Source: an uncultured Faecalibacterium sp. (GTDB lineage: Bacteria > Bacillota > Clostridia > Christensenellales > Aristaeellaceae). Taken from it: 52,885 nucleotides of DNA. The stretch spans positions 1 to 52,885 of the forward strand of contig CAYMOM010000001.1 in NCBI GenBank assembly GCA_964391995.1, read 5' to 3'. Within the stretch, counting starts at the first letter, position 1; every line of letters starts with the position of its first letter. The translations under genes and the position numbers were made by a program. Below are positions 1,633-33,371 of this stretch, in pieces. Below the pieces are notes generated by a model. It saw only the letters and a program-made list of their open reading frames with translations, searched no databases and was not told the DNA's origin.

Positions 1633-1820
1633 CCAGCGGGCGCTGCCCTCTGGATGCCGGTCAGGGCGCTGCCCTGACAACCCGGCCGAGGGCGCCGCCC
1701 TCGGCACTCCCGCTTAAGGGATTTCATCCCTTAAGAATCCCTTCTTTGTGTGTGTTTCGTTCGCCGTACCAGCAGGGGTCACGGTGCGCAACAGGCGCAC
1801 CGCGACGTGGGAAAGGGGCG
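1633..1820 (+). repeat. Modular intergenic hairpin repeat, copy 1 (three A modules + B + C)
   Basis: A modules: CCAGCGGGC-GCT-GCCCTCTGG 1633..1653, GTCAGGGC-GCT-GCCCTGAC 1660..1678, CCGAGGGC-GCC-GCCCTCGG 1686..1704. B module: CTTAAGGGAT-TTC-ATCCCTTAAG 1713..1735. C module: GTCACGGTGCGC-aacag-GCGCACCGCGAC 1778..1806. An extra hairpin CCTTCCCC-TCAA-GGGGAAGG sits at 1847..1866. Confidence 0.85.
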
Positions 1821-1900
1821 CTCCACCTCATCCGGCCTTGCGGCCACCTTCCCCTCAAGGGGAAGGCTCGTGCATGCTGTGTTGCGCGCTTCTGCACGGC

Positions 1901-2830
1901 TTACACCGTCAATTCCTCCACACACGCTGCCAGCGCATCGGCTACAGCAGCGATGTTCCCCTCCTCCGCCACGGTGTCAGCCTTGGTGTGCAGGTGAGGC
2001 GTGTAGAATCCTACCAGCTTGTTGCGCTTGCAGGCGCAGATGTTCACCCCGCACTTGAAATTTTTCCAGTCGGAGCCGGCGGTGGTGCCAATGCTGTCGA
2101 AGAAGAACACCTTGTGGGTGGTGGTCTTCTCCATCTGCCGCTGAAGGAAGCCGAACTCCCGGTACTGCCGGGCCAGCTTGCGGCTGATGACCAGCAGGTT
2201 TTCGCCCACACCGATGCAATGCAGGTTTACGGTCAGCCGGGTATAGCCAACCTGCAAATGTTCCTTGGTGTATGCTTTCGACCCGCGCATGCTCTTTTCC
2301 TCGTTATCAAACAGGATAAAGGCCGCCTTTTCCCGGTGCTCCTCCGGCAGCTGATTCATCATGGTCAAAAGCGCCGCCAGGCCGGAGGTGCTGTCGTTCA
2401 CGTTGTTCTTGTTGGGAATGCCGCCATTGGTCATCCACAAAATCATCGCAGCATACACCAAAAGCCACATGATGCGCACAATGCTCGGATCGTGAATCAC
2501 CACACCCAGCGCCAGCATCAGCACGGCGGAAAGCAGCAGCAACAGCACCACCACAGCGGCGCTGTACAGCAGGGAAAGCAACGGATTCCTTGGCAGAAAT
2601 ACATTGGGCAGCAGCATGTTGGCGGCGGTGTCGTAATGGGCGGTGAACAGCATGGGTGCCTTTTCCGGGTTGCCCACAATGATGTTCTCGTGGGAAAGCC
2701 CGTTTTTCTCCACCTTCACGCTGTAACCCATCCGGCGGATCTCCTGCACCGTCCAGTCCCGGAAAGCCTTCTTCTGCTCCGCTGTGCGGCGGATGGGAAA
2801 CTGGCGGGTAATTTCCTCAATATAGTTCAT
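1901..2830 (-). CDS. M28-family zinc peptidase-like protein with hydrophobic insert (paralog 2 of tandem pair)
   Basis: ORF track. M28 ligand motifs occur in canonical order: FTAHYDT, NVNDSTSG, LFDNEEKSMRGS, HLHTKADT. About 70 hydrophobic residues lie between the first two motifs. There is no N-terminal signal peptide. ATGA overlap with the upstream paralog (2827..2830). Confidence 0.7.
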   Translation of the reverse strand: MNYIEEITRQFPIRRTAEQKKAFRDWTVQEIRRMGYSVKVEKNGLSHENIIVGNPEKAPMLFTAHYDTAANMLLPNVFLPRNPLLSLLYSAAVVVLLLLLSAVLMLALGVVIHDPSIVRIMWLLVYAAMILWMTNGGIPNKNNVNDSTSGLAALLTMMNQLPEEHREKAAFILFDNEEKSMRGSKAYTKEHLQVGYTRLTVNLHCIGVGENLLVISRKLARQYREFGFLQRQMEKTTTHKVFFFDSIGTTAGSDWKNFKCGVNICACKRNKLVGFYTPHLHTKADTVAEEGNIAAVADALAACVEELTV

Positions 2831-3741
2831 AAAAGCTCCTTGGTCATGGCAGCCAGACCATCGGCGATGAAGGCGATGTTCCCGGCATCCGCCACGGTGT
2901 CGTGCTTGGTGTGAATCTTACTGCAGTAGTAGCCCACACGCTTGCCCTTTTTGCAGGCGCACACGGCTATGCCGCACTTGAAGTTGCTCTGGTCGGAGGG
3001 ATACACGTGGCCTTCCATGTCAAGCCATTCCACCTGCCGGTCTTTCTGAGCGCTGATGCTCCTTTGCAGCAGGGCGAACTTCTCATGCTGGCGGGCCTTC
3101 TTGGGAGAGAAGAACAGGATGGTTTCACCCACGCCCACGCAGTCCATGTTGACAAGCAGGGTTTCCTTCTGAATCTGCTTGTGCTTGGAGGCAAACCCAT
3201 TGGAGCCCAGCATGCCCTTTTCCTCGTTGTCAAAGAGGATGAAGGCCACCTTGTCTCGCTTGTCCTTGGGCACCCGGGCCATGGTTTCAAGCACGGCAGC
3301 CACACCGGAGGTGTTGTCGTTGGCGTTGCAGGGATTGGCCGGGCCGAAAATCAACAACAGAAGCAGCGCCACCAGGCATAGCTCCCAGGCTACAAAGGCC
3401 GCATCAATGCCGGAGATCAAGCCTGCCACCACGGCGGGAATGGTGCAAATCAGCATCATGCCCAGCACCAGGGCCAGCTGATATAGCATGTAAATGCCCA
3501 CATTGCAGGGTGTGATGAAGTTGGGAATGGGCATGGTGGGCGGCGTGTCGTAGTGGGCGGTGAAGATAACCTGCGCCTTGTCCGCATCGCCGATGACAAT
3601 GTTCTTATTGGTTTTGCCAACGATGCTGGCCTCGTAGCCCAGGTAGCCGGCCTCGCCAACAGCCCATGTGCGGAAGGCCTCCTTCTGCGTGCGGCTTTTG
3701 CGCACGGGGAAGCGCTCCTGCAGGGTTTCCAGGTAAGACAT
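2827..3741 (-). CDS. M28-family zinc peptidase-like protein with hydrophobic insert (paralog 1 of tandem pair)
   Basis: ORF track. Motifs FTAHYDT, NANDNTSG, LFDNEEKGMLGS, IHTKHDT. Hydrophobic insert VGIYMLYQLALVLGMMLICTIPAVVAGLI...FVAWELCLVALLLLLIF. SD AAAGGAGAA 14 nt after the trmO stop. Confidence 0.7.
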   Translation of the reverse strand: MSYLETLQERFPVRKSRTQKEAFRTWAVGEAGYLGYEASIVGKTNKNIVIGDADKAQVIFTAHYDTPPTMPIPNFITPCNVGIYMLYQLALVLGMMLICTIPAVVAGLISGIDAAFVAWELCLVALLLLLIFGPANPCNANDNTSGVAAVLETMARVPKDKRDKVAFILFDNEEKGMLGSNGFASKHKQIQKETLLVNMDCVGVGETILFFSPKKARQHEKFALLQRSISAQKDRQVEWLDMEGHVYPSDQSNFKCGIAVCACKKGKRVGYYCSKIHTKHDTVADAGNIAFIADGLAAMTKELL

Positions 3742-3755
3742 AACATTCTCCTTTG

Positions 3756-4421
3756 TTAATCAATGCTGACAACAGTCAGCACGCCGTCCGCCACACGGAA
3801 GCGAACCTCCGTGCCGGCGTAGGCAAAGCCGTATATGCGCTGCTGCTCCCGCTGGTATCCGGGCCGGGGATCCTGGGCCAGAATGCCTGGCAAGGCTTCC
3901 CGGCTGTCGGGCGGGAGCTTCTGCAAAAGCTCTGGGGGAATCACCACCTGCAAGCCATAGTCCTTCACCTGATGGGCAAACCCGCCGGTGGCCTCCGGAT
4001 GGCAGTCTGCATAGGGCAGGTATGGCTTGATGTCGTAAATGGGCGTGCCGTCCATAAGATCAGCACCCGCCACCACCAGCACCGGGCCGAAGCGGGTATC
4101 CTGCCGCAGTTCCACCAGCTTCACACTGCTCAGCCCAATGGGATTGGGCCGGAAGGGTGACCGGGTGGCGAACACGCCCATCCGTACATTGCCGCCCAGC
4201 CTGGGCGGACGCACCGTGGGCGACCAGCTTTCCCGCTCCGCCTGGTGGAACTGCCATATGAGCCACAGGTGGCTGTATCCCTCAATGCCTCGAAAGGCCT
4301 CGGGCACGCGGTATTCCGGTTCAAACACAATCAGGGAGCGCACCTCATCCACCAAACCGGACTGGCGCGGCAGACCAAACTTGGTGGGAAAATCATTGTG
4401 GATATGCGCAATGACGTGCAT
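3756..4421 (-). CDS. trmO: tRNA (N6-threonylcarbamoyladenosine37-N6)-methyltransferase TrmO (TsaA/YaeB family)
   Basis: ORF track. Family-typical strings GLPRQSG, SHLWLIWQFH, VFATRSPFRPNPIG, GTPIYDIKPYLPY. SD AAAGGAG 8 nt upstream of ATG 4421. Confidence 0.85.
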   Translation of the reverse strand: MHVIAHIHNDFPTKFGLPRQSGLVDEVRSLIVFEPEYRVPEAFRGIEGYSHLWLIWQFHQAERESWSPTVRPPRLGGNVRMGVFATRSPFRPNPIGLSSVKLVELRQDTRFGPVLVVAGADLMDGTPIYDIKPYLPYADCHPEATGGFAHQVKDYGLQVVIPPELLQKLPPDSREALPGILAQDPRPGYQREQQRIYGFAYAGTEVRFRVADGVLTVVSID

Positions 4422-4458
4422 GGCCGGCGCTCCTTTCTGATAAAATGAATACCCTGTT

Positions 4459-8819: not shown

Positions 8820-8824
8820 CAAAC

Positions 8825-8860
8825 AAGGGCAGGCCCACTTGCAGGCCTGCCCTTATTTTC
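8825..8860 (+). terminator. Rho-independent terminator after GH5 gene
   Basis: AAGGGCAGGCC-cacttgca-GGCCTGCCCTT followed by ATTTTCTT. Confidence 0.75.
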
Positions 8861-8871
8861 TTGCCCTCGCA

Positions 8872-9005
8872 CGCCGCTCTTTCCGCGTCGCGGTGCGCCC
8901 TTCGCGCACCGTGACCCCCGCTTTCGCGGCGTACCAATCATACCCAAAGAAGGGATTCTTAAGGGATGAAATCCCTTAAGCGGAGTCCAGAGGCAGCGCC
9001 TCTGG
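8872..9005 (-). repeat. Modular intergenic hairpin repeat, copy 2 (C-B-A on plus strand)
   Basis: C module: GTCGCGGTGCGC-ccttc-GCGCACCGTGAC 8887..8915. B module: CTTAAGGGAT-GAA-ATCCCTTAAG 8958..8980. A module: CCAGAGGC-AGC-GCCTCTGG 8987..9005, 17 nt from the VanW-like stop at 9022. Confidence 0.85.
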
Positions 9006-20773: not shown

Positions 20774-20818
20774 CTTTTGCATTTCAAGCCGCTGCGCAGG
20801 CCCATTAATGCCCGCGCC

Positions 20819-22042: not shown

Positions 22043-22547
22043 GCTTCTTCCCTCCAAATTGGGCACGCAGGGCGCGAAGGTCGTCCTGCTGGGCAGTCAG
22101 TTTCAGCAAAAAGCGGCGCTGCTCCTCGTCTTGGGCAAGCATTTCCCCGCAGGTGCGCACAGCATCCACAAATGCCGGGCACAGGCCGCTTTTCCCCTGG
22201 CGGGCCAGCGGGCATACCGGCTTGGCACGCAGGTCGGTGGCAACCTTCACCCCATCCGGGCGCAGCACAGGCAGCAGGGGAAACAGCCGGCAGCTCAGGG
22301 GTCTGTCCTCCCGGCGACAGTCGCCGGGGCAGGTCAGCAGCATGCCGGCAGGCGTCTGCTGCACACGGTAGCCCGGCAGCTGCGTATAGTAGGCTTCCTC
22401 CCCTGGAAAGAGCAGCATGCCGGTGTTTTCACCCTCCATGGGCTGACAGCAGCGGCCTGCGCACAGCTTTCCGCAGTCCGTTTGAAGGGGTGTCAGGCAG
22501 TCGAAAAGCGCCCGGGCCCGGGCAATGACCTCCGGCAAGCAGCCCAT
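22035..22547 (-). CDS. Cysteine-cluster protein (C-x3-C-x3-CC; YkgJ/UPF0153-like putative Zn/Fe-binding)
   Basis: ORF-track 22035..22871 trimmed to M109 (MGCLPEVIARARALFDCLTPLQTDCGKLCAGRCCQP...). That ATG lies 12 nt after the upstream stop and is preceded by GTGAGGTG. Confidence 0.45.
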   Translation of the reverse strand: MGCLPEVIARARALFDCLTPLQTDCGKLCAGRCCQPMEGENTGMLLFPGEEAYYTQLPGYRVQQTPAGMLLTCPGDCRREDRPLSCRLFPLLPVLRPDGVKVATDLRAKPVCPLARQGKSGLCPAFVDAVRTCGEMLAQDEEQRRFLLKLTAQQDDLRALRAQFGGKKHV

Positions 22548-22558
22548 CGGGAAACACC

Positions 22559-23482: not shown

Positions 23483-23498
23483 CCCATCCTTTCGTGGC

Positions 23499-24059
23499 TC
23501 AGGTATCGTACACAGCGCGGCTGCCGCCAATATAGGGCAGGCGGCTGTAAGCCATAACCAGGTTGGCATGACCCACATGGTTTTCCTCCATGCGCAGGGG
23601 AACCGCCACCGGGCGGATGTGCATGCCCACCAGGGTATCACCAATGTCGATGCCTGCATCGGCCTGCACGCTCATGGCCAGGGCAGGCTGCTCCAGCAGC
23701 TTCCAGGCCGCAGCAGGCACGCTGCCGCCGGCCTTGGGCTGGGGAATGGCCCGCACCTGCACCAGGCGCTGTTCCTTCAGCACCCGGTGCTCCATCACAA
23801 TGGCCCGGTTCAGGTGCTCACAGCACTGGAACGCCGCCTCCAGCCCATGGGCACGGCAGGCATCCAGCATGGCCCGGGCGATCACCTGTCCCAGCTCCGG
23901 CACACTGCCTTTGCCGATCCGTGCACCCGCCACCTCGCTGGTGGAGCACCCCAGCACAATCACCCCGCCGGGGCCTATCTGCCCGGCCTCCGCCAGGGCC
24001 GCAACCGCCTTCTGCAAGGTGGATTCAATCTCCCATTGCAACCCTTCATCAACCACCAT
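23499..24059 (-). CDS. UPF0340/TIGR01440-family protein (YwlG-like)
   Basis: ORF-track 23499..24131 trimmed to the ATG 6 nt after SD GGAGGA (ATG 24062 is an alternative). Strong family strings VLGCSTSEV, FQCCEHLNRA, GIDIGDTLVGMH, IGGSRAVY. Confidence 0.8.
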   Translation of the reverse strand: MVVDEGLQWEIESTLQKAVAALAEAGQIGPGGVIVLGCSTSEVAGARIGKGSVPELGQVIARAMLDACRAHGLEAAFQCCEHLNRAIVMEHRVLKEQRLVQVRAIPQPKAGGSVPAAAWKLLEQPALAMSVQADAGIDIGDTLVGMHIRPVAVPLRMEENHVGHANLVMAYSRLPYIGGSRAVYDT

Positions 24060-24080
24060 CATCACTCCTCCATCCAAAAG

Positions 24081-24216
24081 CGCCGCTTCCCCGCGTCGCG
24101 GTGCGCCCTCCGCGCGCCGTGACCCCTGCAAAACCTGCGTACAAATCGCACACCCGCCGGGGATTCTTAAGGGCCTCAGGCCCTTAAGCGGGAGTCCAGA
24201 GGGCAGCGCCCTCTGG
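24081..24216 (-). repeat. Modular intergenic hairpin repeat, copy 4 (C-B-A on plus strand)
   Basis: C module: GTCGCGGTGCGC-cctcc-GCGCGCCGTGAC 24095..24123. B module: CTTAAGGGCC-TCA-GGCCCTTAAG 24166..24188. A module: CCAGAGGGC-AGC-GCCCTCTGG 24196..24216, abutting the ftsK stop (24217..24219). Confidence 0.85.
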
Positions 24217-27018
24217 TCATTCCAGCTCGTTGTTTTCCTTCATTCGCTCAAACTCCTCGCGGGAGATGAGGCAGAAGCGCGGTTTGGAACCATCCTTGGG
24301 GGACACAACGCCGCGCTTTTCCATTTCGTCCACCAGGCGGGCGGCGCGGGCGTATCCCAGCTTCAGCCTGCGCTGGAGAAGGCTGGTGGACACCTGCCCG
24401 TCCTGCACAGCCATTTCGATGCACTGCTGCAAAAGGGAGGCATCGCTGTTGGGGTCTTCGGCAGGCTCGCCGCCATCGGTCATGGGGAAGCCGCCGTTTT
24501 CGTGTTCCAGCTGTTCCAGCTGCTCCAGCACATCGGGGTCATAGTCGGCTTCGCTGTTTGCGCGGATGAAATCGGTCACCCGGTTCACCTCGGCATCGGA
24601 CATAAAGCAGCCCTGCAGGCGGATAGGGGTAAACTCCCCTGTGGGCGCATACAGCATATCGCCCCAGCCCAGCAGCTGCTCGGCACCCGGCTTATCCAGG
24701 ATGGTGCGGCTGTCGATAAAGCTGGAAACCTTAAAGGCAATGCGGCTGGGAATGTTGGCCTTGATCAGGCCGGTAATCACATCCACAGACGGGCGCTGGG
24801 TGGCTACCACCAGGTGAATGCCGGCGGCGCGGGCCAGCTGGGCCAGGCGGCAGATGTGATCCTCCACATCCCGCTTGCAGGTCATCATCAGGTCAGCCAG
24901 CTCGTCAATGATGATGACGATCCGGGGCATGTGCTCCTCGCCGTCCTCCAGCTTGGCATTGTAGCCGTCAATGGCGCGGACGCCCTTGGTCTGGAATTTT
25001 TTATAGCGGTCCATCATCTCCGCCACGGCCCAGGCCAGGGCACCGGCTGCCTTGTGGGGATCGGATACCACGGGGATCAGCAGATGGGGAATGCCGTTGT
25101 AGCACTGCAGCTCCACCACCTTGGGATCCACCAGGATCATCCGTACCTCCCGGGGGGAACAGCGGTACAGCAGGGAGTTGATCATGGTGTTGATGCAGAC
25201 CGACTTGCCGGAACCGGTGGCACCGGCAATCAGCAAATGGGGCATGCGGGTCAGGTCGCACACAATGGGTTTGCCGGCAATGTCCTTGCCCAAGGCCACC
25301 GCCAGGGGTGATTTGGCCTCCTGCATGGGCTGGCTTTCCAGCACTTCCCGAAGGGTCACGGTGGCAACCTTCCTGTTGGGGACTTCCACACCCACCAGGG
25401 ATGTACCGGGAATGGGTGCCTCGATCCGGACGGATTTCACCTCCATGTTCATGGCGATGTTCCTGTCCAGGTTGTTGAGCTTGGACACGTTGATGCCCTG
25501 GGCAATTTCCAGCTCAAACCGGGAAATGGCAGGCCCATGGGTCACATGGCGAACCTCGGCAGGAATCTTGAAGGAGCGCAGTGTAGCCTCCAGCCGCCTG
25601 GCGTTTGCGGCATCCTCCTCATCCTGGTTGATGCTGTTCTGATGCTCAGGCTGCTTCAAAAGGCCCACCCCCGGGAACACATAGGGCGGGGGCAGCTCCA
25701 TTTCGGTCTGCTGGGCCTGGGGTGCGTTCTTCCTGGGCGGCAGCTTCAGTTCCGGCTTCCAGGCATCCTGGGGCGGCTCCTGCTGGAGCTTGGGGGCAGC
25801 CACCGCTTCAGCCTGGTCTGGTGCATCCTCCCAGGGCGGCGTGTCCGACCAAGAAGGCTTGGGCTGCTGCTTTTTCCTGACCAGGCGCGGCGCAGGCTCT
25901 TCCTCCTGTTCCGCGGTGCGCCAGGTGGCGGTGCGCTGGGTATCCTCCTGACAGACCTCCGGCTGAACCTGCCGGGCTGGCTGGGGCGTCTCCTGCTGGG
26001 CAGGCTCCGCCGGCTTTGCTTTGCGGCTGCCAAAGATGCCTGTGGTCTGGGGTACCTCCTGCTGCTGGGCAGGCTGCTTGCGGCCGAAAATGCGGGACTT
26101 GCTTTCCTTTTCTTCTGCCGGCACCTGGTAGGAGTATTTCTGATAGGAGTCCATGGCCTGCTGCTCCAGCTGCTCATCCACCGGTACAGGCGTAGCCGTC
26201 TGGACGCGCACAGGCGCGGGCTGCTGCACAGGCACAGTCCTGGTGGCTGGCTGATAGGCCCCCTGGGGCACATAGTCGCCCCAGCCGTCATCCTGGGCCT
26301 GGGCATTGGTGCGCTGGGTGGTCTGCATTTGCTGCCGGCGCTGCCATTGCATGTCCTGCTGGTACTGCTGCTGAGCTTCCCGCTCCCGGGCGATGCGGCG
26401 GATGTCCTGTTTCTCCTGCACCTTGCCGAAGAGTTTGCGCCAGTCCAGATGCAGCATGAGAACAAAGGCCGCCACGCCCAGCACTGCCGCAATGATGCCG
26501 CCGCCAACAGGGCCGGCCAGCTTCCACAGGGGCCAGGCCAGCAGCATGCCAAGAATGCCGCCGCTGGCGTTTTTCTGGGCGCCCACCTCATAGGCCCGGG
26601 CCAGGAAAAGGTCGAAGGCGCCGGGTGCGGAGGAGCGGGACTGGTTGCCCGTATAGAAATAGTCCATCAGGGAGCTGGTGCCAATGCGGGTAAACAGGGT
26701 AACAGCCGCCAGCACCAGAAGGAACACCAGCGCAAACAGCGCATAGGGCCGCACAGGGGCCTTGCGCTGGGTGGAGAGCATCACCAGAACGCCGCCCCAG
26801 ATGGGCAGCACCGGCAGGGCAAAGGCCAGGCCGCCAGCCAGGCCGCTGCACACCTGGCGCAGGCCTGCAAACACGTCTCCCGCCATGTTCAGCACCACAG
26901 CCAGAAAAATCATCACGCCCAGGGCCACCAGCACCAGACCGGTAATGAGGAAAAGTGCCATCCTGTCGGCAGAATACGCCTGTGCCTTCCGTGGTTTGTT
27001 TCTCTTGGTTTGCGCCAT
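24217..27018 (-). CDS. ftsK: DNA translocase FtsK/SpoIIIE
   Basis: ORF track. N-terminal TM helices, a long Q/P-rich linker, Walker A GATGSGKS, and a C-terminal gamma winged helix LLQRRLKLGYARAARLVDEME. Confidence 0.95.
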   Translation of the reverse strand: MAQTKRNKPRKAQAYSADRMALFLITGLVLVALGVMIFLAVVLNMAGDVFAGLRQVCSGLAGGLAFALPVLPIWGGVLVMLSTQRKAPVRPYALFALVFLLVLAAVTLFTRIGTSSLMDYFYTGNQSRSSAPGAFDLFLARAYEVGAQKNASGGILGMLLAWPLWKLAGPVGGGIIAAVLGVAAFVLMLHLDWRKLFGKVQEKQDIRRIAREREAQQQYQQDMQWQRRQQMQTTQRTNAQAQDDGWGDYVPQGAYQPATRTVPVQQPAPVRVQTATPVPVDEQLEQQAMDSYQKYSYQVPAEEKESKSRIFGRKQPAQQQEVPQTTGIFGSRKAKPAEPAQQETPQPARQVQPEVCQEDTQRTATWRTAEQEEEPAPRLVRKKQQPKPSWSDTPPWEDAPDQAEAVAAPKLQQEPPQDAWKPELKLPPRKNAPQAQQTEMELPPPYVFPGVGLLKQPEHQNSINQDEEDAANARRLEATLRSFKIPAEVRHVTHGPAISRFELEIAQGINVSKLNNLDRNIAMNMEVKSVRIEAPIPGTSLVGVEVPNRKVATVTLREVLESQPMQEAKSPLAVALGKDIAGKPIVCDLTRMPHLLIAGATGSGKSVCINTMINSLLYRCSPREVRMILVDPKVVELQCYNGIPHLLIPVVSDPHKAAGALAWAVAEMMDRYKKFQTKGVRAIDGYNAKLEDGEEHMPRIVIIIDELADLMMTCKRDVEDHICRLAQLARAAGIHLVVATQRPSVDVITGLIKANIPSRIAFKVSSFIDSRTILDKPGAEQLLGWGDMLYAPTGEFTPIRLQGCFMSDAEVNRVTDFIRANSEADYDPDVLEQLEQLEHENGGFPMTDGGEPAEDPNSDASLLQQCIEMAVQDGQVSTSLLQRRLKLGYARAARLVDEMEKRGVVSPKDGSKPRFCLISREEFERMKENNELE

Positions 27019-27037
27019 GATGTTCCTCCGCTTATCC

Positions 27038-28180
27038 TTACTTGCTTGTGATAAACAGGCTGCTCAGCGTGCCGTCCTCCGCGGCATGGAGGCGCAGCTG
27101 AACACCATTGAAATTGTAATAGTCGCTGATGCCCGGCGCCAGGCGGCCGGCCTCCGCCCTGTCCGCGTTCAGGGCAACGGAAGCATCCGGCTGGCCCAGC
27201 ACGGCCTGCCAGGCCTCCCGGGCGGTTTCGCCGGTGCACAGGCCATACAGGTTGATGCGATCCACCCTGATGCCCTGCACCACGCTGTTTTCCCAGCTGT
27301 CGGTCAGGCTGTCCGTCAGAAGGTACACATCGCGGAAAGCGCCGTCCTCCAGCTGGATCAGGCGTCCGCCCTCGTACAGGTCGGGGTCGATCAGCAGGCA
27401 ATAGGCGTCCACCGCCGCCTGAATGGAGCCGCCCAGCACTGCAGGGATGCCCGGCAGCGCGCCGCTTTCCGCAGCCGTGCGGATGCTTTGGGCGCTGGTT
27501 TCATCCAGGGTCAGCATGGCCTCTGCACCCATGCGCTGCAGCAGGCTGCCTTCCTCAAGGCGCAGATGCTCCCGCAGCTGGTACCACTGCACATTCACCT
27601 TGCCGGGCTTGTCCGACAGGGTGGAAAGCTGCTCCAGGGGATAGTACAGGGTCAGCCCGGCAGCATCCAGGGTGAACTGCTCCGGCAGTGGGGTCAGCTG
27701 GGCGTTGCGCAGGTGGGCGCTCAGTTCCGGTGCCAGCTCCCACTCCAGGTATTCCTCCAGGGCCAAGCGCGCCGCTTCCCCATCGGCAAACAGCTCATCC
27801 CAGGTGATGATATGCCCGTCCGTCATGTCCACACTGGCGGCAAACCAGGCCCGGGTGGCCCGGTCGCTTTCCACAGGTCCGGCAGCGCTGGTGACAACGC
27901 TCAGCACGTCCCCTGCCCAATTGCAGGCATAGTCCGCCTGCAGGGGTGATGGGCTGTGCATGGTCAGCGCCAGGCGGTTCAACATTTTCTCCGCACCGGA
28001 GGCAGCCAGCAGGGCAGCATTCACCGCCTGCTGCAGGGTTTCATCCTCCAGGCCCTCCACCTGGGGATAGTACACATACCCTTCGCCCAGGGTCAGTCCC
28101 TTGCGCTCCAGGCTTGGTTCTGCCAGGGCGCAGGGGAGGAGCATCGTCAGTATCAGCAACGAAAGCAAAAACTTCTTCAT
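27038..28180 (-). CDS. Hypothetical secreted protein (N-terminal region reminiscent of DUF4163/DUF3298 RsiV-like folds)
   Basis: ORF-track 27038..28330 trimmed to M51 (MKKFLLSLLILTMLLPCALAEP...), after SD GGAGGA. Ends 19 nt upstream of the ftsK start. Confidence 0.55.
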   Translation of the reverse strand: MKKFLLSLLILTMLLPCALAEPSLERKGLTLGEGYVYYPQVEGLEDETLQQAVNAALLAASGAEKMLNRLALTMHSPSPLQADYACNWAGDVLSVVTSAAGPVESDRATRAWFAASVDMTDGHIITWDELFADGEAARLALEEYLEWELAPELSAHLRNAQLTPLPEQFTLDAAGLTLYYPLEQLSTLSDKPGKVNVQWYQLREHLRLEEGSLLQRMGAEAMLTLDETSAQSIRTAAESGALPGIPAVLGGSIQAAVDAYCLLIDPDLYEGGRLIQLEDGAFRDVYLLTDSLTDSWENSVVQGIRVDRINLYGLCTGETAREAWQAVLGQPDASVALNADRAEAGRLAPGISDYYNFNGVQLRLHAAEDGTLSSLFITSK

Positions 28181-28319
28181 GCGGCATCCTCCAGGAAAGT
28201 ATTGTACAACAAATAACGATTCTCTGCAAGTTTTCCATCCCCCGGCGCTGGTTTTCTTGCAATCCCATTGATTTTCTATTATAATGAATGAAAGCGTTAT
28301 TCGCAAGGAGGTTGCCCCT

Positions 28320-29606
28320 ATGTCCGCCATGCACGAACATCACCTGCCCAATGGCATGACCCTGCTGTGCAGCCGTCAGCCTCACCTGCACGCCATGGAA
28401 TTCGGCCTGTATTTCAAGGGCGGAAGCCTGTATGAAAACAAGCAGAACCAGGGCGTGTGCCACCTGCTGGAGCACCTGTGCTTCCGCAGCCTTGGCGGGC
28501 TGGACGCCGAGGGACTGAACAGCCTGATGGCCCGCTTTGGTGCCGAGCTGGACGGTGCCACCTATCCTGAAGGCGTGGTGTTCCGCCTGAAGACCCACAC
28601 CCGCTTTTTCGATGAGGTGCTGGAGCTTTTCCTGCGCTTCTTTGCCGATGTACCCTGGACCCAGCAGCAGATTGATGCCGAAAAGCAGGTGGTTCTCCGC
28701 CAGCTGGAGCAGGAGGACTGCGACTTTGACGAGGAGGTCGCCCGGCGCTACCGCCGCACATCCGCCGGTGGATTCTCCCTGATGGGCACGGCACAGACTG
28801 TGCAGGGCATGAGCGCCGCCACCCTCCGCCGCTGGCAGCGGCTGCTGTTCCAGCCGCAAAACGCCTGCCTGTGCCTGACCGGAAACTTCTCCGATGGCAT
28901 GGAGCGGGCCCTGGTGGAGGCCTTTTCCGAGCTGGAGAACCATTTCGACCAGCCGCCCTTCGCCCAGGCTGTTCCCCTGGACTTTTGCATGCGGGACAGC
29001 CGCAGCGACCTGGTGCTGGACGAGGAAGGCGGCCTGGCCAAGGTGCACCTGGCCTTTGATTTGAACGAGGACCGGGTCTTCCCCCTGACGGGCGAGGTGC
29101 TGAACGCCTTCACCGCGGGAAACGGCGATTCCCTGCTTTTCCAGCAGCTGCGGGAGGAGGAGGCCCTGGTGGCGGAGATTGACTCCACCATGGAGGAAAT
29201 GGGCATGTTCCGCCGGCTGGTGATCCGCTATGATGTGCGCCAGGAGTGCCTGGCGGAAAGCCTGTGCCGGGTGTTTGAGCTTTTGCACCGGCTGTGCCTG
29301 TATGTGCGGCCTGTGCGCCTGACCCAGACCCGTATGCAGTTTACCGATAACCTGATTTTCTACCAGGATGATGCCTCCGGCATGAACGAGCTGCTGGGCT
29401 GGGCCTGGCTGGCGGATGATCTTTCCCGGACGGACCTGGATGCCCAGGCCCAGATGTATGACGACCTGACCTGTGAAGATCTGCTGGATGCCGCCCAGTC
29501 CGTTTTTCGCCCGGAAAACCTGACCATCTCCATCCAGCGTGATCCCGGGCAAACGCCCCGCTCCCTGAAACCCCTGCTGGCCCGGCTCCGCGCCATGCTG
29601 GGGTAA
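28320..29606 (+). CDS. M16-family (pitrilysin/insulinase-like) zinc peptidase
   Basis: ORF-track 28284..29606 trimmed to M13, after SD AAGGAGG with 7-nt spacing. Inverted zinc motif HLLEH (GVCHLLEHLCF). The -28041..29552 ORF is an antisense shadow. Confidence 0.8.
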   Translation: MSAMHEHHLPNGMTLLCSRQPHLHAMEFGLYFKGGSLYENKQNQGVCHLLEHLCFRSLGGLDAEGLNSLMARFGAELDGATYPEGVVFRLKTHTRFFDEVLELFLRFFADVPWTQQQIDAEKQVVLRQLEQEDCDFDEEVARRYRRTSAGGFSLMGTAQTVQGMSAATLRRWQRLLFQPQNACLCLTGNFSDGMERALVEAFSELENHFDQPPFAQAVPLDFCMRDSRSDLVLDEEGGLAKVHLAFDLNEDRVFPLTGEVLNAFTAGNGDSLLFQQLREEEALVAEIDSTMEEMGMFRRLVIRYDVRQECLAESLCRVFELLHRLCLYVRPVRLTQTRMQFTDNLIFYQDDASGMNELLGWAWLADDLSRTDLDAQAQMYDDLTCEDLLDAAQSVFRPENLTISIQRDPGQTPRSLKPLLARLRAMLG

Positions 29607-29654
29607 TGGGACACGGCGCTTTTTCCGTGATGTTGGTTTCAGCGAGGTTCATCC

Positions 29655-30356
29655 ATGCCAGAAAACATTTATGAAATTCTTTCCCTGGGCGCACGGTATT
29701 GGTTCACCTTTCTGGGTGCGCTGATCGTGTGGCGATCCTTCCGCTGGCTGCGGAAGGACCGCAAGGCCAAGCACATCCGCCTGAAAAACCTGCCCGATGC
29801 AGGGATGATTGGCGAAATGGTGGTGCTGCAGGGTTCCGACCAGCTGCCGGAGGGTACGCTGCTGCCCGTGCCCCGGGCCGGGGTGCTGGGGTATGTGCGC
29901 ACCTGCGATGTGGTGGTGCCGGTGGAGGGCGTTTCCCCCAGGCACCTGGATTTTGTGTTCCAGCCGGGCAAGGGGCTGCTGCTTTTCCCTTTCCGCGGTG
30001 CAGCCTGCGTGGCGGATGATGTGGAGCTGACCCACCGCAGCGCCGCCAGGAAATATTCCCTGGTGCACGGCTCCGTTTTGCAGGTGGGCCAGGCCGTATT
30101 GCGCCTGCGCCTGTTTGCCGGCCTGGACACGGAATACCGGGTTGCCCGGCCCTATGAGCCATCCTGCGCGCCCTATGAGCCGGAACAGCCGCCCGGGGAA
30201 TGGGAACAGCCCTGTCCGCCCCAGGAGCCGGCCTTCTGGGATGATCCGCCCCAGGAGCCGGAGCCAACCTTCTGGGATCAGCAGCCTGCCCAGGAGGATT
30301 CCTGGCTGAATCCACCCACTGCCGCAAGAAGGAGGCGCCGCCATGAGGAACCATGA
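29655..30356 (+). CDS. Membrane-anchored FHA-domain protein
   Basis: ORF track. N-terminal TM YWFTFLGALIVW. FHA core GYVRTCDVVVPVEGVSPRHLDF...LVHGSVLQVG. P/E/Q-rich tail. Sits upstream of ftsW-PBP2. Confidence 0.75.
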   Translation: MPENIYEILSLGARYWFTFLGALIVWRSFRWLRKDRKAKHIRLKNLPDAGMIGEMVVLQGSDQLPEGTLLPVPRAGVLGYVRTCDVVVPVEGVSPRHLDFVFQPGKGLLLFPFRGAACVADDVELTHRSAARKYSLVHGSVLQVGQAVLRLRLFAGLDTEYRVARPYEPSCAPYEPEQPPGEWEQPCPPQEPAFWDDPPQEPEPTFWDQQPAQEDSWLNPPTAARRRRRHEEP

Positions 30357-31596
30357 TACGCCCCGGCGCGATCCTGCACGGCTGCTGGCCCGCACGGTGA
30401 TGCTGTTCTTCTTCTGCGCGTTTTTCCTGCTGTTTTTGAAGGATTTCGCCTGGCAGGCCGCCGCGCTGGCCCTGGGCGTTCCGGCGGTGATCTGGCTGGG
30501 CACCAATTTGCTGCCCAGGCTTTTCCCCACGGACAAGCTGCTGCTGAGCCTGACCAATTTCCTCTGCGCCCTGGGCGTGCTGGTGCTGTATGCCACCAAC
30601 CCGGCCTATGCCTATCAGCAGGCGCTGTACTATGGCGTAGGCCTGTTTGCCATGGTATTCTGCATTTACCTTGTGCGCATCATCAGGCACTGGCGGCTGC
30701 CCGTGCTGCTGCTGATGCCCGTCTCCCTGGCGCTGCTGGCGCTGCCCCTGGTGATTGGCAAAGAAACCAACGGTGCAAAAAACTGGTTTTATGTGGGCAG
30801 CCTGTCCGTTCAGCCCAGCGAGATTGTCAAGCTGTCCCTTTTGCTGATCCTCAGCTATTTCATGGGCCGGCGGAAGCTGCTGCCCTGGCTGATTTTCTCA
30901 GTGGGCTGCCTGGGGCTTCTGATGTTGCAGAAGGACCTGGGCACGGCGCTGATGTACTACGGCGTGACCCTGATGCTGTTCTACGCCTCCTCCGGCAACC
31001 TGGCGCTGACAGGCCTTGGCCTGGCTGGCGGCGCAGGCGCTGCGGTGATGGGCTACAAGCTCTTTGCCCATGTGAAACGCCGGGTTGCCATCTGGCAAAA
31101 CCCCTGGAGCGACTATGACAACGCCGGCTACCAGCTGGTGCAAAGCCTGATGGCCATTGCCAGCGGCGGCCTGTTTGGCGTGGGTTTGGGGCTGGGGTAC
31201 CCCCGCACCATTCCCGTTTATCATACGGATTTCATTTTCGCCGTCATCTGCGAGCAGTTCGGCGTGATCTTCGGCCTGTGCGTGCTGCTGGTGTATGTGG
31301 CTATCATCTGGCGCGGCGCCACCACCGCCATGGCGGCCCGCACCAGCTTTCACGGCCTGCTGGCCATGGGCGCCACCCTGCTGCTGGGCTTGCAGACCTT
31401 TGTCATCATTGGCGGGGTAATCAAGCTCATTCCCCTCACCGGCGTCACCATGCCCTTTGTCAGCTATGGCGGCACGTCCCTGGTGTCCAGCATGTGCCTG
31501 ATTGGCCTGGTGCAGGGCGTTGCCAGCCTGAACGAGGACGACCTGGACGAGGACACCCGCCTGGCCATGCTGGGCAGCGAGGAGGCATGCCCATGA
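30343..31596 (+). CDS. SEDS-family peptidoglycan glycosyltransferase FtsW/RodA/SpoVE
   Basis: ORF track. SD AGAAGGAGG. Polytopic membrane protein. Family strings NGAKNWF, QPSEIVKL, DFIFAVICEQFG, PLTGVTMPFVSYGGTS. Confidence 0.9.
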   Translation: MRNHDTPRRDPARLLARTVMLFFFCAFFLLFLKDFAWQAAALALGVPAVIWLGTNLLPRLFPTDKLLLSLTNFLCALGVLVLYATNPAYAYQQALYYGVGLFAMVFCIYLVRIIRHWRLPVLLLMPVSLALLALPLVIGKETNGAKNWFYVGSLSVQPSEIVKLSLLLILSYFMGRRKLLPWLIFSVGCLGLLMLQKDLGTALMYYGVTLMLFYASSGNLALTGLGLAGGAGAAVMGYKLFAHVKRRVAIWQNPWSDYDNAGYQLVQSLMAIASGGLFGVGLGLGYPRTIPVYHTDFIFAVICEQFGVIFGLCVLLVYVAIIWRGATTAMAARTSFHGLLAMGATLLLGLQTFVIIGGVIKLIPLTGVTMPFVSYGGTSLVSSMCLIGLVQGVASLNEDDLDEDTRLAMLGSEEACP

Positions 31597-33017
31597 AGCA
31601 GCAGCGCTACCTGTTCAAAATGCTGGCACTGATCATGTTTGGCCTGTTCCTTCTGCTGGCAGTCTATGGCGCGTACAGCATCTTCACCTATGGCAACAGG
31701 TGGTTTTCCTTCAGCCGGAACCCCCGGGTCCGTGCCCAGAAGCAAACCGTCATCGCCGGCGATATTCTCGACAGGAATGGTGTGGTGCTGGCCACCACAG
31801 TGGACGGGAAGCGAGTCTACCAGGAGGACGAAAGCGCCCGCCGGGCCGTGGTTCACCTGCTGGGGGACAGCCAGGGCCAGGTTTCCAACGGTGTGGAAAC
31901 CTTCCAGACCCGCTACCTGTACGGTTTTGAAACCTCCCTTGGCGAGCGCATTGGCGCACTGCTGGCAGGGGAAACCCGCCGCGGCGATAACGTGACCCTA
32001 ACCATCGACAGCCGGCTGTGCACAGCCATCGCCCAGTCCTTCGAGCAATACCCCAAAACCCAGGGCAAAAAGGGCGCCGCTGTGGTGATGAACTACCAAA
32101 CCGGCGAGCTGATTGCCCAGATCAGCCTGCCCAGCTTTGACCCTATGAACATCACCGCCGCCACCGCTGCCGACCCGGGCCAGCCCTTCTGGAACAGGGC
32201 TACCCAGTCCCTTTACCCGCCGGGCAGCTCCTTCAAAATCATCACCGCCTCCTCCGCCCTGGAGAATATCCCCGGCGTGGAGGAGGACAGCTTCACCTGC
32301 ACCGGCGGCCTGGTGGTGCTGGGCCAGGCCATCCGGGATTACGGCGGCGCCATTCACCAGAGCCTGACCCTGCAGGAGGCCTTCAAAAAAAGCTGCAACA
32401 ATGTGTTTTCCCTCACCGCGCTGAACCTGGGTGACGAAAACCTGCGCCGCACGGCGGAGAGCTTTGGCTTTAACGATAATTTCCTTTTCCGCGACCTGGT
32501 GGTGGAAAACAGTTCCTATCCCACGGACAACCGTTCCCTGTTCGAGTTGGCTACAACGGGCATTGGTCAAAGCGCCCTGGGCGCCACGCCCATGCATATG
32601 TGCATGGTGGCTGCCGCCATTGCCAACGATGGCGTGATGATGGAGCCGCGCCTGCTGATGCAGGTCAGCAGCCCGGCAGGCAGCGTTCGCACCGCCTATC
32701 AGCCCAAGGTTTACCGCACCGCCGTCACACCCCAGGTTGCCGCCACCCTGCAGGCCTACATGGGCGATGTGGTTGTTTCCGGCACGGGCACCAGGGCAGC
32801 AGTAGACGGCCTGACCATCTGCGGCAAAACCGGCTCAGCTGAAAGCAGCCTGTCCGGCAACGCGGTTACCTACGGCTGGTTCGTAGGCTATATTGCCGAT
32901 AGCAGCCTGCCCTATGCCGTCAGCGTCCTGGTGGAATCCATCGAGGATGGCGAAGGCGGCGGCAGCACCGCAGCCCCCATCGCCCACGACATCTTTCAAT
33001 ACCTGAAAAACCAGTAA
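31593..33017 (+). CDS. Penicillin-binding protein 2 (class B transpeptidase)
   Basis: ORF-track 31278..33017 trimmed to M106 (MKQQRYLFKMLALIMFGL...). ATGA overlap with the ftsW stop, 8 nt after GAGGAGG. SxxK = SSFK, SxN = SCN, KTG = GKTGSAE. Confidence 0.9.
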   Translation: MKQQRYLFKMLALIMFGLFLLLAVYGAYSIFTYGNRWFSFSRNPRVRAQKQTVIAGDILDRNGVVLATTVDGKRVYQEDESARRAVVHLLGDSQGQVSNGVETFQTRYLYGFETSLGERIGALLAGETRRGDNVTLTIDSRLCTAIAQSFEQYPKTQGKKGAAVVMNYQTGELIAQISLPSFDPMNITAATAADPGQPFWNRATQSLYPPGSSFKIITASSALENIPGVEEDSFTCTGGLVVLGQAIRDYGGAIHQSLTLQEAFKKSCNNVFSLTALNLGDENLRRTAESFGFNDNFLFRDLVVENSSYPTDNRSLFELATTGIGQSALGATPMHMCMVAAAIANDGVMMEPRLLMQVSSPAGSVRTAYQPKVYRTAVTPQVAATLQAYMGDVVVSGTGTRAAVDGLTICGKTGSAESSLSGNAVTYGWFVGYIADSSLPYAVSVLVESIEDGEGGGSTAAPIAHDIFQYLKNQ

Positions 33018-33022
33018 CGCCG

Positions 33023-33162
33023 TCAGAGGGCGCTGCCCTCTGGACTCCCGCTTAAGGGATTTCATCCCTTAAGAATTCCAGGCTTGTGGATTGGAACTTG
33101 GGCGGTTCCCTTGCAGGGGTCACGGCGCACGGAGGGTGCGCCGCGACGCGGGGCAGCAGCGG
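33023..33162 (+). repeat. Modular intergenic hairpin repeat, copy 5 (A-B-C on plus strand)
   Basis: A module: TCAGAGGGC-GCT-GCCCTCTGG 33023..33043, 5 nt after the PBP2 TAA. B module: CTTAAGGGAT-TTC-ATCCCTTAAG 33051..33073. C module: GTCACGGCGCAC-ggagg-GTGCGCCGCGAC 33118..33146. Confidence 0.85.
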
Positions 33163-33173
33163 TTCGCTTCAAC

Positions 33174-33213
33174 AAAAAAGTCCGCTTTCCGTATGGAGAG
33201 CGGATCATTTTTT
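33174..33213. terminator. Bidirectional rho-independent terminator between PBP2 and metI
   Basis: AAAAAAG-TCCGCTTTCC-gtat-GGAGAGCGGA-tcaTTTTTT (10-bp stem including one G.T). Confidence 0.8.
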
Positions 33214-33248
33214 ATAAAGCTCATGCTGTACCACAGGCGCAGCTCACC

Positions 33249-33371
33249 TGCGTCGCGGCGCCCCTTTGCGCGCCGTGACCCACGCTTGGCTGTAACCCAG
33301 TCGGGCTGTCCCGCCCGGGATTCTTAAGGGTCTTTCGGCCCTTAAGCGGGGTCCAGGGGCAGCGCCCCTGG
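33249..33371 (-). repeat. Modular intergenic hairpin repeat, copy 6 (C-B-A on plus strand)
   Basis: C module: GTCGCGGCGC-ccctttgc-GCGCCGTGAC about 33252..33279. B module: CTTAAGGGTC-TTTC-GGCCCTTAAG 33323..33346. A module: CCAGGGGC-AGC-GCCCCTGG 33353..33371, abutting the metI stop (33372..33374). Confidence 0.85.

Follow-up and report, generated by a model that had tools for sequence, protein, structure and literature searches.

The 52.9-kb stretch of DNA analyzed here, which we call the window, contains six copies of a GC-rich hairpin repeat (Table 1), all of them at the places given by the first-pass annotation; chance expects none. Each copy is made up of hairpin modules that we designate A, B and C, and the A modules form one end of the element. 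Copy 1 is reversed relative to both of its flanking genes, which lie on the minus strand, and its A end is 3 nt from the SD of the gene at 1129-1623(-). Copy 2 has the stop codon of a VanW-like gene (9022) on one side and a bidirectional terminator on the other. Copy 3, which lies upstream of ftsH, begins immediately past the stop codon of hpt (13753-13755), and copy 4 takes up the whole of the spacer that separates the ftsK stop (24217) from the SD and start of a DUF436 gene (24077). The convergent copies 5 and 6 start, respectively, 5 nt past the stop of a PBP transpeptidase gene (33017) and immediately past the stop codon of an ABC permease gene (33372).

Table 1. Repeat copies and adjoining features in the window.
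Feature	Position	Strand	Components and remarks
Copy 1	1633-1824	+	A units 1633-1653, 1660-1678, 1686-1704; B 1713-1735, then AATCCC
Copy 1, distal part	C stem 1778-1806; tail to ~1824	+	
Half copy of a different palindromic family, 'D'	1822-1868	+	CCACCTCATCCGGCCTT.CGGCCACCTTCCCCTCAAGGGGAAGG; joined to copy 1 tail
Bidirectional intrinsic terminator, canonical	8821-8858	.	Distal to copy 2; outside repeat
Copy 2	8869-9005	-	A 8987-9005; B 8958-8980; C stem 8887-8915
Copy 3	13665-13752	-	A units 13732-13752, 13704-13724; B 13674-13696; no C
Copy 4	24077-24216	-	A 24196-24216; B 24166-24188; C stem 24095-24123, then tail
Copy 5	33023-33165	+	A 33023-33043; B 33051-33073; C stem 33119-33147
Intrinsic terminator hairpin	33180-33205	.	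Between convergent copies 5 and 6; outside repeat
Copy 6	33234-33371	-	A 33353-33371; B 33323-33346 (8-nt centre, one T.G); C stem ~33249-33276

The repeat unit is a hairpin with a stem of 8-10 bp and a loop of 3-4 nt, followed by the motif A-N-Y-C-C-C, so that the flank reads GGGRNT on the opposite strand. A and B are units of one kind and are homologous. Between one and five A units and a single B unit are arranged head to tail and, in the clade to which the window belongs, are followed by a spacer of 40-60 nt and a 12-bp C hairpin. This last hairpin has an invariant foot, GGGGTCACGG...CCGCGACGCGGGG, which includes an A.C mismatch, and a freely variable apex. A conserved GGGG..ACG precedes both the first hairpin and stem C, and the elements extend ~15 nt past the C stem in a tail of the form GCGGGGnAAGCnGC.

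The B pattern CTTAAGGG-N7-CCCTTAAG occurs five times in the window, compared with 0.00 expected from shuffles, and the B module of copy 6, which has an 8-nt centre, is detected by a covariance model of A+B (R1). Four window sites match the C pattern (0 expected by chance); a fifth C, in copy 6, carries a 1-nt deletion and is detected at 33234-33292 by a covariance model of C (R2). Hairpins of the A type, NNNNNGGC-GCN-GCCNNNNN with at most one mismatch, number nine in the window and all lie within the six copies, three of them in copy 1, two in copy 3 and one in each of copies 2, 4, 5 and 6. The three ordered modules that the first-pass annotation attributed to all copies are thus present in five, copy 3 being without C. 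The same qualification attaches to the mismatch at position 4 of stem C (A.C on one strand, G.T on the other), described as common to every copy: it is found in all five window copies that have C, and among copies found elsewhere the position-4 A.C is kept in 46/48 and in a further 5/5, 51 of 53 in all. The stem variants previously listed are all correct. Those of B are compensatory as listed, except that the B stem of copy 6 is not fully so, having a T.G on the plus strand that is C.A on the other. The remaining irregularities are a second C.A in the C stem of copy 4 and a C.T mismatch in the first A of copy 1.

Covariance-model searches of related genomes, which had been proposed as a follow-up, extend the family well beyond the window. 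R1 detects 112 A+B copies (E<=1e-6) in 653 kb and a further 97 copies in 522 kb of other Clostridia, and R2 detects 49 C copies; in total the models locate more than 200 additional copies in related MAGs. The density in the window is about one copy per 9 kb, and unbiased orthologous loci from the four closest relatives give the same figure; in metagenomes holding the strain the k-mers of the element are 15-20 times deeper than those of its flanks. Taken together, these values make the hundreds of copies per genome that had been predicted plausible. The A+B dyad is widespread, occurring in several Clostridia families, and C is found only in the window's own clade. The three-module architecture is therefore lineage-specific, and the conserved core is a dyad of two homologous units. 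Rfam gave no match at the gathering score for the whole window and only chance-level matches in E-value mode for copies 5 and 6, and no counterpart was found in plasmids, phages or published papers. The repeats are a large, undescribed GC-rich hairpin DNA family of uncultured gut and rumen Clostridia.

The stems of this family are maintained by paired change. Those of A and B are 98.3 % paired, with double changes in 17 of 19 pairs, a level of pairing reached in none of 500 shuffles; their covariation score is 0.388, compared with no more than 0.04 in slid controls. In the C stem 6 of the 12 pairs covary. One-sided changes in the A and B stems are few and swaps of CG<->GC and AU<->UA are common. 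Even the B loop is found inverted between orthologous copies, reading TTC in the window and GAA in L065. The earlier description of a genuine dispersed intergenic family with massive stem-preserving covariation is borne out. The mismatches in A and B are, however, strand-symmetric (19 G.T vs 19 A.C), and G.U pairs amount to ~1 % on either strand. Because of this symmetry, the rarity of G.U intermediates and an orientation that is unbiased with respect to transcription (see below), the pairing looks like that of a DNA palindrome rather than of a strand-specific RNA. Selection on secondary structure, as first proposed, is accordingly not indicated in the sense of an RNA structure.

Divergent spacers make up 15 % of all spacers, yet none of 73 copies lies in one. 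In 70 of the 73 it is the A end, not the opposite end, that is closer to a gene (p ~1e-17), and the same polarity is seen in 49 of 59 copies of an independent set, giving 119 of 132 over the two sets regardless of the direction of transcription. In these cases the A end adjoins a stop codon, an SD site or a -35 box, so that the element reaches up to the first base under constraint in the neighboring gene unit, and the junctions share no motif. The median distance from the A end to a stop codon is 2-3.5 nt, and 42 of the 62 stop-side copies lie within 10 nt of the stop. In co-directional spacers the orientation relative to transcription is random (28:22 and 19:16; pooled 47:38). These stop-distance and orientation counts had both been suggested in the first-pass annotation. 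The flanking genes are unrelated, syntenic housekeeping genes. Sixteen convergent pairs of copies and no divergent pairs are present, single copies being more numerous than pairs. The arms of the convergent pairs flank native terminators and each arm tracks its own gene end, so that the pairs look like two independent copies.

Comparison of orthologous sites reveals turnover. The window, L065 and L067 carry an element in the hpt-ftsH spacer; L066, L072 and more than 60 other orthologous loci have none there. At the 3' end of the VanW-like gene the repeat is present only in the window and L065; in four relatives the stop codon is followed after 2-7 nt by an intrinsic terminator. An operon spacer that is 16 nt long and empty in L054 contains an element in L003. 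At the 3' end of the PBP gene the repeat is found, among 76 loci, only in the closest relatives. In these six genomes the orthologue is followed by an element whose A-end units differ, and in three of the six the A-end units encode the last codons and stop of the gene. An A-end unit can thus supply the end of the neighboring coding sequence, as in L259, L260 and L262, where a unit contains the final 4-8 codons of the PBP gene along with its stop. Different lineages have replaced these codons and the stop with different units. The number of A units also differs between orthologous copies (3 vs 1, 2 vs 1). The L001 orthologue of copy 1 has a single A unit, and its C stem carries two compensatory apical changes. 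Recombination between tandem copies distinguishes L039 from L064, the flanks of which are 99.7 % identical. No target-site duplication of 3-5 nt rises above the permutation null at any offset. All of the presence/absence differences are between genomes that are at least 10 % diverged, and no recent strain-level insertion was seen among the genomes compared.

The explanation that we favor, and to which we give about an even chance, is that the repeats are a REP/BIME-like family of mobile palindromic DNA and a new member of that class. They would be short non-coding GC-rich palindromes that spread in the chromosome and are tolerated only in promoter-free intergenic DNA. Copying or movement would depend on a trans-acting enzyme recognizing the hairpins in single-stranded DNA, for which an HUH/Y1 enzyme (RAYT- or IS200-like) is the likeliest candidate, with the mismatched, invariant C foot and the conserved A-N-Y-C-C-C flanks as putative recognition sites. 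The perfection of the stems would have two causes: only intact hairpins propagate, and the palindromes correct themselves, by template switching within a strand or by conversion from another copy. The A end would be the active end, at which units are gained and lost together with deletion of adjacent DNA; such turnover could ratchet the element up to a stop codon, SD or -35 box and, in some cases, into dispensable last codons. By analogy with E. coli REPs, a hairpin transcribed as part of a 3' UTR and 0-15 nt from a stop would be expected to affect mRNA decay and translation termination. A Pfam search detected no RAYT, IS200 or other transposase in the window, and the genes between inverted copies are housekeeping genes, with no transposase among them. 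The search for a RAYT/IS200-like gene that the first-pass annotation had recommended was carried out as an HUH + Y..NP motif scan and found none within ~1.9 Mb of fragments rather than whole genomes.

We consider it unlikely that the array end actively seeks out, or extends towards, the edge of the neighboring gene unit and in doing so remodels gene ends. If true, this would imply a one-ended, selection-limited mechanism, either unit addition with adjacent deletion or overwriting, and, throughout gut and rumen Clostridia, a continual remodeling of gene 3' ends, 5' leaders and C-terminal tails.

Conservation of the A+B dyad across several Clostridia families could equally mean a host function. 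The repeats would then be a domesticated DNA or mRNA signal at gene boundaries, held in position by selection and not by movement, an alternative that we judge to have a rather low probability. In one form of this idea hairpins 0-15 nt past a stop or before an SD would tune termination, ribosome rescue, the stability of mRNA 3' ends or translational coupling; in another, a conserved protein would be bound through CTTAAGGG...CCCTTAAG and A-N-Y-C-C-C. The extreme proximity of the A end to stop codons and the confinement of copies to transcribed spacers both fit such a role, as do the conservation of the linear motifs of A+B across many Clostridia lineages, the persistence of orthologous copies across genomes with ~80 % protein identity, and the precedent of E. 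coli REPs lying <16 nt from stops (PMC12306157); an element is also joined to its gene in one metatranscriptome contig, which is weak evidence. However, the neighboring genes are unrelated housekeeping genes, the same orthologous gene occurs with or without the element with nothing else visibly changed, and the two orientations are equally frequent in operon spacers. Moreover, the A end may meet a stop, an SD or a -35 box, a variety that is difficult to attribute to a single function. A strand-specific structured cis-regulatory or small RNA, in which the three-hairpin motif is under selection for RNA folding, is improbable. Such an RNA would account for the strong covariation in all three stems and for a predicted fold that is more stable than shuffles (z = -3.0 when folded as RNA). 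It would also fit the mismatches of stem C other than position 4, which on the forward strand are 9 A.C vs 1 G.T and so would be G.U on the reverse strand. These features have to be set against the lack of an Rfam match, the random orientation to transcription and the rare, strand-equal G.U pairs of A and B. In addition, the stems are near-perfect palindromes whose double changes are of the transversion type, the number of units ranges from 1 to 5, module C is dispensable, and covariation in the possible closing helix CCCGC/GCGGG is not significant (p = 0.12).

The small size, high copy number and intergenic location of the repeats would also suit a classical MITE, derived by internal deletion from a DDE-transposase IS and moved by cut-and-paste via terminal inverted repeats, and the 16 head-to-head pairs could be read as long terminal inverted repeats. 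This origin is nevertheless very improbable: a single element has no terminal inverted repeat common to its two ends, the target-site duplication is absent, the halves of the pairs are unrelated beyond family level, single copies outnumber pairs, and it is housekeeping genes rather than transposases that lie between inverted copies. There remains a function as Rho-independent terminators or attenuators, suggested by GC-rich hairpins close downstream of genes and by the B hairpin at 13696-13674, which is followed by AATCCC and then a T run and was flagged by a terminator scan. We regard this as exceedingly improbable, in line with the first-pass judgment that the modules are not simple intrinsic terminators. 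A, B and C have no directly following T tract, copies 2, 5 and 6 have canonical terminators on the far side of the element, element-free relatives have their own terminator right after the stop, and copy 4 sits within an operon spacer immediately before the SD.

For the preferred reading as mobile palindromic DNA, the comparison with REP/BIME elements drawn by the first-pass annotation is the best available, in that the repeats are extragenic, lie near stop codons, have no target-site duplication and occupy sites that differ in presence or absence. Like the REPs and BIMEs of Enterobacteria and Pseudomonas, they are short, GC-rich imperfect palindromes, plausibly in hundreds of copies, forming mosaics with other repeat types, and they combine a short conserved linear motif beside a variable stem with a conserved mismatch in one stem. 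They resemble them, too, in being confined to spacers that are transcribed, where most lie 3' of a gene and many are no more than 15 nt from a stop (PMC12306157); according to that source, citing Liang et al. 2015, E. coli REPs cluster 1-20 nt past stops and affect translation only if <16 nt from the stop. Unlike the units of BIMEs, which alternate in orientation, those described here run head to tail. REPs have a 5' GTAG motif; here there is no GTAG and the analogous, not identical, A-N-Y-C-C-C lies 3' of the hairpin. The REP/BIME system includes a single-copy RAYT (TnpA-REP) gene flanked by the repeats, and none was identified here in the ~1.9 Mb of fragments. To our knowledge, REPs have not been described as having arrays polarized towards the neighboring gene unit or as encroaching on last codons.

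REPINs are reportedly REP doublets that form hairpins, a description associated with Bertels and Rainey, and inverted pairs with short spacers are likewise frequent here (16 convergent, none divergent). The arms of our pairs differ in flanking native terminators and in each following its own gene end, and they are no more alike than random copies of the family (identity 0.67 vs 0.71; permutation p = 0.89), so we reject the doublet as the replicating unit. The attC sites of integrons are similar in being imperfect palindromes, 60-140 nt long, whose start coincides with or falls within the preceding gene's stop codon, with conserved structure, variable sequence and conserved unpaired bases that define the strand. 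An integron origin does not fit: the flanks are syntenic housekeeping genes rather than cassettes, copies occur on both strands and in convergent pairs, R''/R' core sites (GTTRRRY) are lacking, the window contains no integrase, and the elements come and go without the gene. Mycobacterial MIRUs are tandem units of 40-100 nt in operon spacers whose ends overlap stop and start signals; they follow the direction of transcription and contain small ORFs. The present units share the tandem arrangement in operon spacers and the overlap with signals of the flanking genes, but are perfect hairpins in either orientation. The BOX elements of Streptococcus pneumoniae, which have the structure boxA-boxB(n)-boxC, are likewise modular intergenic repeats of a Gram-positive genome with variable tandem number and strong predicted structure. 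They have no sequence similarity to the repeats described here, in which the variable module is terminal where that of BOX is internal, and A and C are not mutually complementary.

All the modules and stem variants listed in the first-pass annotation are present in the six stretches on direct reading, and the three-module layout holds in five of them, copy 3 being without module C. We define the forward reading as A(n)-B-spacer-C-tail, and the strands of the copies (table) follow from it. The same family is recovered as direct and inverted repeats by a repeat search of the window. The B pattern occurs five times and the C pattern at four sites, compared with none in dinucleotide-preserving shuffles, and all nine A-type hairpins found by a regular-expression scan lie within the six copies. 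The host stretch has a G+C content of 60 %, and its genes are of ordinary chromosomal types (phosphoglucomutase, two M28 peptidases, TrmO, NifU/NifS/Rrf2, a GH5 cellulase, a VanW-like protein, FtsH, Hpt, TilS, FtsK, RodA/PBP, and Met-like and Opp-like ABC transporters); none of the window genes was identified as a transposase, integrase or reverse transcriptase. The nearest public genome is the metagenome-assembled genome (MAG) CAYLIC01 ('uncultured Faecalibacterium sp.', ~84-89 % DNA identity to the window), followed by the ruminant-gut Clostridia MAGs JAGBEX, JAGBBA, JAFTPN and JAFVVG, with more distant relatives carrying the names Aristaeellaceae, Christensenellales and Candidatus Limiplasma.

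Coordinates of the repeat copies and of further features of the window
Feature	Position	Strand	Remark
Copy 1	1633-1824	+	
Half D unit	1822-1868		only D/E/F part in the window
Copy 2	8869-9005	-	
Copy 3	13665-13752	-	
Copy 4	24077-24216	-	
Copy 5	33023-33165	+	
Copy 6	33234-33371	-	
In-frame tandem repeats, 18-nt and 39-nt (GGCGGCTGATAGCC...)	16795-16974 and 10568-10645		encode low-complexity Pro/Gln/Tyr-type protein repeats; hosts are the gene at 15571-17019 and the 5' part of the VanW-like gene
Host gene of tandem repeats	15571-17019	-	no Pfam match
Inverted terminator-like hairpin copies (AAGGCTTGCCGAACGCCGGCAAGCCTT)	20532-20573 and 20731-20772		~160 nt between them; beside the 20511/20512 breakpoint
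N6/N4 DNA methylase gene	20819-22066		
ORFs after the methylase gene	22035-22439 and 22559-23482		no Pfam match

When many copies are aligned, A and B prove to be one kind of unit, consisting of a stem NNNNRGGG(N), a loop of 3-4 nt and then A-N-Y-C-C-C, with the post-hairpin sequence being ACTCCCG for A and AATCCC for B. Some A stems are B-like (CTTAAGGGC) and some B stems A-like (CCAAAGGG). The number of A units per copy ranges from 1 to 5, and in 41 of 183 copies the first hairpin is preceded by a G-rich leader with ACG at its end. The foot of the C stem is invariant and its apex free to vary; the stem is followed by the tail GCGGGGnAAGCnGC. A helix closing the element by pairing of CCCGC in the A-B linker with GCGGG in the C tail was rejected, since these segments are complementary on average but their covariation is not significant. 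In JAFTPN and JAGBEX the tail is followed by further palindromic families, forming mosaics: D (CCACCTCATCCGGCCTT.CGGCCACCTTCCCCTCAAGGGGAAGG and its mate), E (GCCTCCCTC..GAGGGAGG..GCCGCTTGCGGC) and F (CACCTGTAGGGGCGATCTGTGATCGCCC). Tandem runs of AATTCCG also lie 3' of the C tail in some genomes, and together with D, E and F they make up BIME-like mosaics at the sampled loci L022, L028, L060, L021, L009, L042 and L055.

Covariance models were built for the A+B part (R1) and for C (R2). A search with one exact 30-mer covering B and its flank retrieves 64 stretches from ~25 MAGs; across the window and these loci R1 identifies 103 full copies at >=36 bits and R2 49 C modules, and with four relatives added the R1 count is 112 copies at E<=1e-6. 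For unbiased samples we used loci orthologous to ftsH (80 loci, 1.42 Mb), which gave 13 R1 and 5 R2 matches, nearly all from the four closest relatives, and 76 loci around the PBP gene, which gave 6 and 2, likewise restricted to the closest relatives. The density given in the first-pass annotation, about one copy per 9 kb, is borne out by a value of one per 8.8 kb for the window, with similar values in the closest relatives. A looser pattern, CTTAAGGG-N7-8-CCCTTAAGAATCCC, is present in at least 117 stretches, and the carriers among the matches listed are Oscillospiraceae, Ruminococcus and other Clostridia MAGs, together with a few matches in Desulfobaculum, Desulfocurvus, Synergistaceae and one alphaproteobacterial MAG. 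Among these listed matches R1 recognizes 97 A+B dyads and R2 five C modules, every one of the latter in the window's clade. With A+B dyads common and C restricted in this way, the A+B dyad is the conserved core of the family and C an addition in one lineage. In metagenomes holding the strain, k-mers of the element are 15-20x deeper than its flanks, and Logan contigs end at every copy. At locus L163 (5100-6200, Desulfobaculum sp. SPO524) a 270-nt unit stands three times in tandem directly 3' of a stop codon; each unit has a B-like hairpin, CTTAAGGGCCGCGGGCCCTTAAG, followed by AATCCC, implying that the B motif is shared with an unrelated element of another phylum.

The first-pass annotation took stem-preserving covariation to indicate selection on secondary structure. 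The covariation itself is strongly borne out. In A+B, 98.3 % of 1925 cells are paired, two-sided changes occur in 17 of 19 pairs, and the covariation score is 0.388 compared with 0.122 for shuffles (0 of 500 reach the observed value) and <=0.04 for slid controls; in the C stem, 88.8 % of cells are paired and 6 of 12 pairs covary. The A.C mismatch at position 4 of stem C, described as present in every copy, is kept in 46 of 48. The pattern is, however, not typical of RNA: one-sided (G.U) states make up ~1 % in A+B, CG<->GC and AU<->UA swaps are common, and G.T and A.C mismatches in A and B number 19 each. The suggestion from the six window copies that all transition mismatches are G.T on the reverse strand thus disappears for A and B at ~100 copies, and a strand skew is left weakly in C alone (9:1 outside position 4). 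Orthologous copies have diverged and yet remain paired, as in the C apex (GCGC/GCGC in the window, GCAT/ATGC in L001) and in the A stems of copy 5 and L258. The B loop is inverted between orthologous copies (TTC at window 13674-13696, GAA at L065 ~9885-9910), a pattern characteristic of a palindrome flip or template switch. From the pairing pattern we infer upkeep of a DNA palindrome rather than stepwise RNA compensation; this upkeep would be likely to arise from templated correction, from conversion by other copies, and from propagation limited to intact hairpins. The predicted folds are stable (RNA -75.5 kcal/mol, z = -3.0; DNA z = -5.3), which only restates the palindromic nature of the elements. 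No RNA run was found to contain the window, and rumen metatranscriptome contigs on locus L209 are too sparse to be informative.

Comparison of orthologous sites reveals filled and empty states. In the window, L065 and L067 the hpt-ftsH spacer contains an element directly 3' of the hpt stop; in L066, L072 and >60 others it has no element and consists of the stop, ~13 nt and a TTGCAA...TATAAT promoter. At the 3' end of the VanW gene the stop is followed in four relatives by 2-7 nt and an intrinsic terminator; in the window a decayed remainder of this terminator precedes the element, and a further terminator lies beyond the element. An operon spacer of 16 nt in L054 is occupied by a whole reversed element in L003, and the PBP gene has an element in all six closest relatives and none in more distant ones. 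In L003 (3223-3518) and L054 a small cysteine-rich ORF (MAEIKGKCGTDCNKCSFREKFNCGGC...) is flanked by two inverted elements with their C ends turned towards it. No target-site duplication of 3-5 nt was found at any of the offsets tested, and the TGA that flanks the tandem copies of L039 at either side, considered as a duplication, did not generalise. A strain-level search for empty sites returned one 1.3-kb Logan contig, Logan contigs being broken at repeats. Where L039 (860-1450) has two different tandem elements, L064 (5640-6020) has one chimeric element within flanks that are 99.7 % identical, a difference that shows recent recombination between neighbouring copies. In the CAYLIC01 relative (L065), window 30215-33079 is joined in inverted order to window 20511, and window 20512-30214 is absent from the locus. 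The window junctions 20511/20512 and 33079/33080 place one synteny breakpoint at the B/spacer junction of copy 5, and a rearrangement at or near this copy is possible. The missing segment includes window 20819-23482, which may be a restriction-modification island.

The elements are polar towards genes, as called with our own codon-usage model. Copies lie 3' of a stop codon in the direction of the gene in 62 of 85 cases, with a median gap of 3.5 nt (<=10 nt in 42 of the 62), and in the other 23 the A end, the end bearing the A hairpins, abuts the start side of an opposite-strand gene. Of 73 copies, 70 have the A end as the one closer to a gene (p ~1e-17). Divergent spacers, which make up 15 % of spacers, contain none of the 73, and within co-directional spacers each orientation is as frequent as the other (28 vs 22). 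An independent set from other Clostridia behaves similarly, with the A end nearer the gene in 49 of 59 copies, one of 59 divergent, an orientation ratio of 19:16 and the same split between stop and start sides (59:22). At start-side copies the A end either stands 1-13 nt from the Shine-Dalgarno (SD) site or abuts the -35 box of the promoter. Adjacent copies form 16 convergent pairs with their A ends outward, also between co-directional genes, and no divergent pairs. The C-termini of the PBP after the conserved ...YL vary by lineage (YLKNQ, YLKQQQ, YLQGLR, YLRALP and YLKGAPSP, each ending at the stop), and in three PBP lineages the last codons and the stop are inside an A- or B-type unit. Together with the gene-abutting A ends, this variation indicates that the A end reaches the first selection-protected base and that units turn over there. 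No shared junction motif was found at the A end, and stop-codon identity at the junctions has a weak bias (p = 0.03). This one-ended polarity towards gene units is the one truly unexplained feature of the family.

Several other readings of the family can be set against these data. That the elements are not simple intrinsic terminators, as the first-pass annotation held, is confirmed by a scan of the window, which places canonical terminators distal to the elements at copies 2, 5 and 6. Derivation of A from captured terminator stems is likewise ruled out, since A units share a common apex (GGGC-GCT-GCCC) and are found at SD and -35 junctions as well, and since in copy 2 the remnant of an old terminator precedes A. 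Organisation as a REPIN or long-TIR element would fit the invariably convergent pairs, yet was rejected because the arms of a pair are no more alike than random copies. The lack of inverted ends and of target-site duplications rules out a MITE, and the window gene content and the occurrence of copies in both orientations rule out an integron array. The motifs GGGGTC... and ...CGTTAAG, which we took to resemble Tn3-family inverted repeats, do not establish such kinship, which was dropped because no 38-bp unit fits. Searches of plasmids, phages and viral contigs gave no match.

Metagenomes from gut and rumen are dominated by uncultured Clostridia, in which dispersed palindromic repeats, well studied in Proteobacteria, have hardly been examined, and the movement of REP-like elements is still poorly understood. 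The present family matches no Rfam family, and in the searched literature no paper contains the motifs or treats such repeats in Christensenellales. It breaks short-read assemblies and marks breaks in synteny; it modifies 3' UTRs and, occasionally, the C-terminal codons of essential genes. Since terminators, sRNAs or CRISPR-like repeats can be wrongly called at its hairpins, a covariance model would improve MAG annotation, and would also provide a strain-typing marker. Should the one-ended polarity be a product of how the elements spread, it would offer a new handle on REP-like movement.

The closest known kind is the REP/BIME class, and by this analogy we file the family as REP-like. The earlier comparison with REP/BIME palindromes stands to this extent, but membership among RAYT-linked REPs is unproven: no RAYT gene was found in the window, between inverted copies or by a motif scan of ~1.9 Mb of fragments, the flanking motif differs from that of RAYT-linked REPs, and the doublet is not the unit. 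In Clostridia, RAYT and related HUH enzymes have been reported for one subclass (PMC6006769), making a partner enzyme of this kind plausible for the family. According to the account of Liang et al. 2015 in PMC12306157, E. coli REPs crowd 1-20 nt from stop codons and affect translation only if they are <16 nt away; the E. coli elements and the present family are thus alike in crowding close to stop codons.
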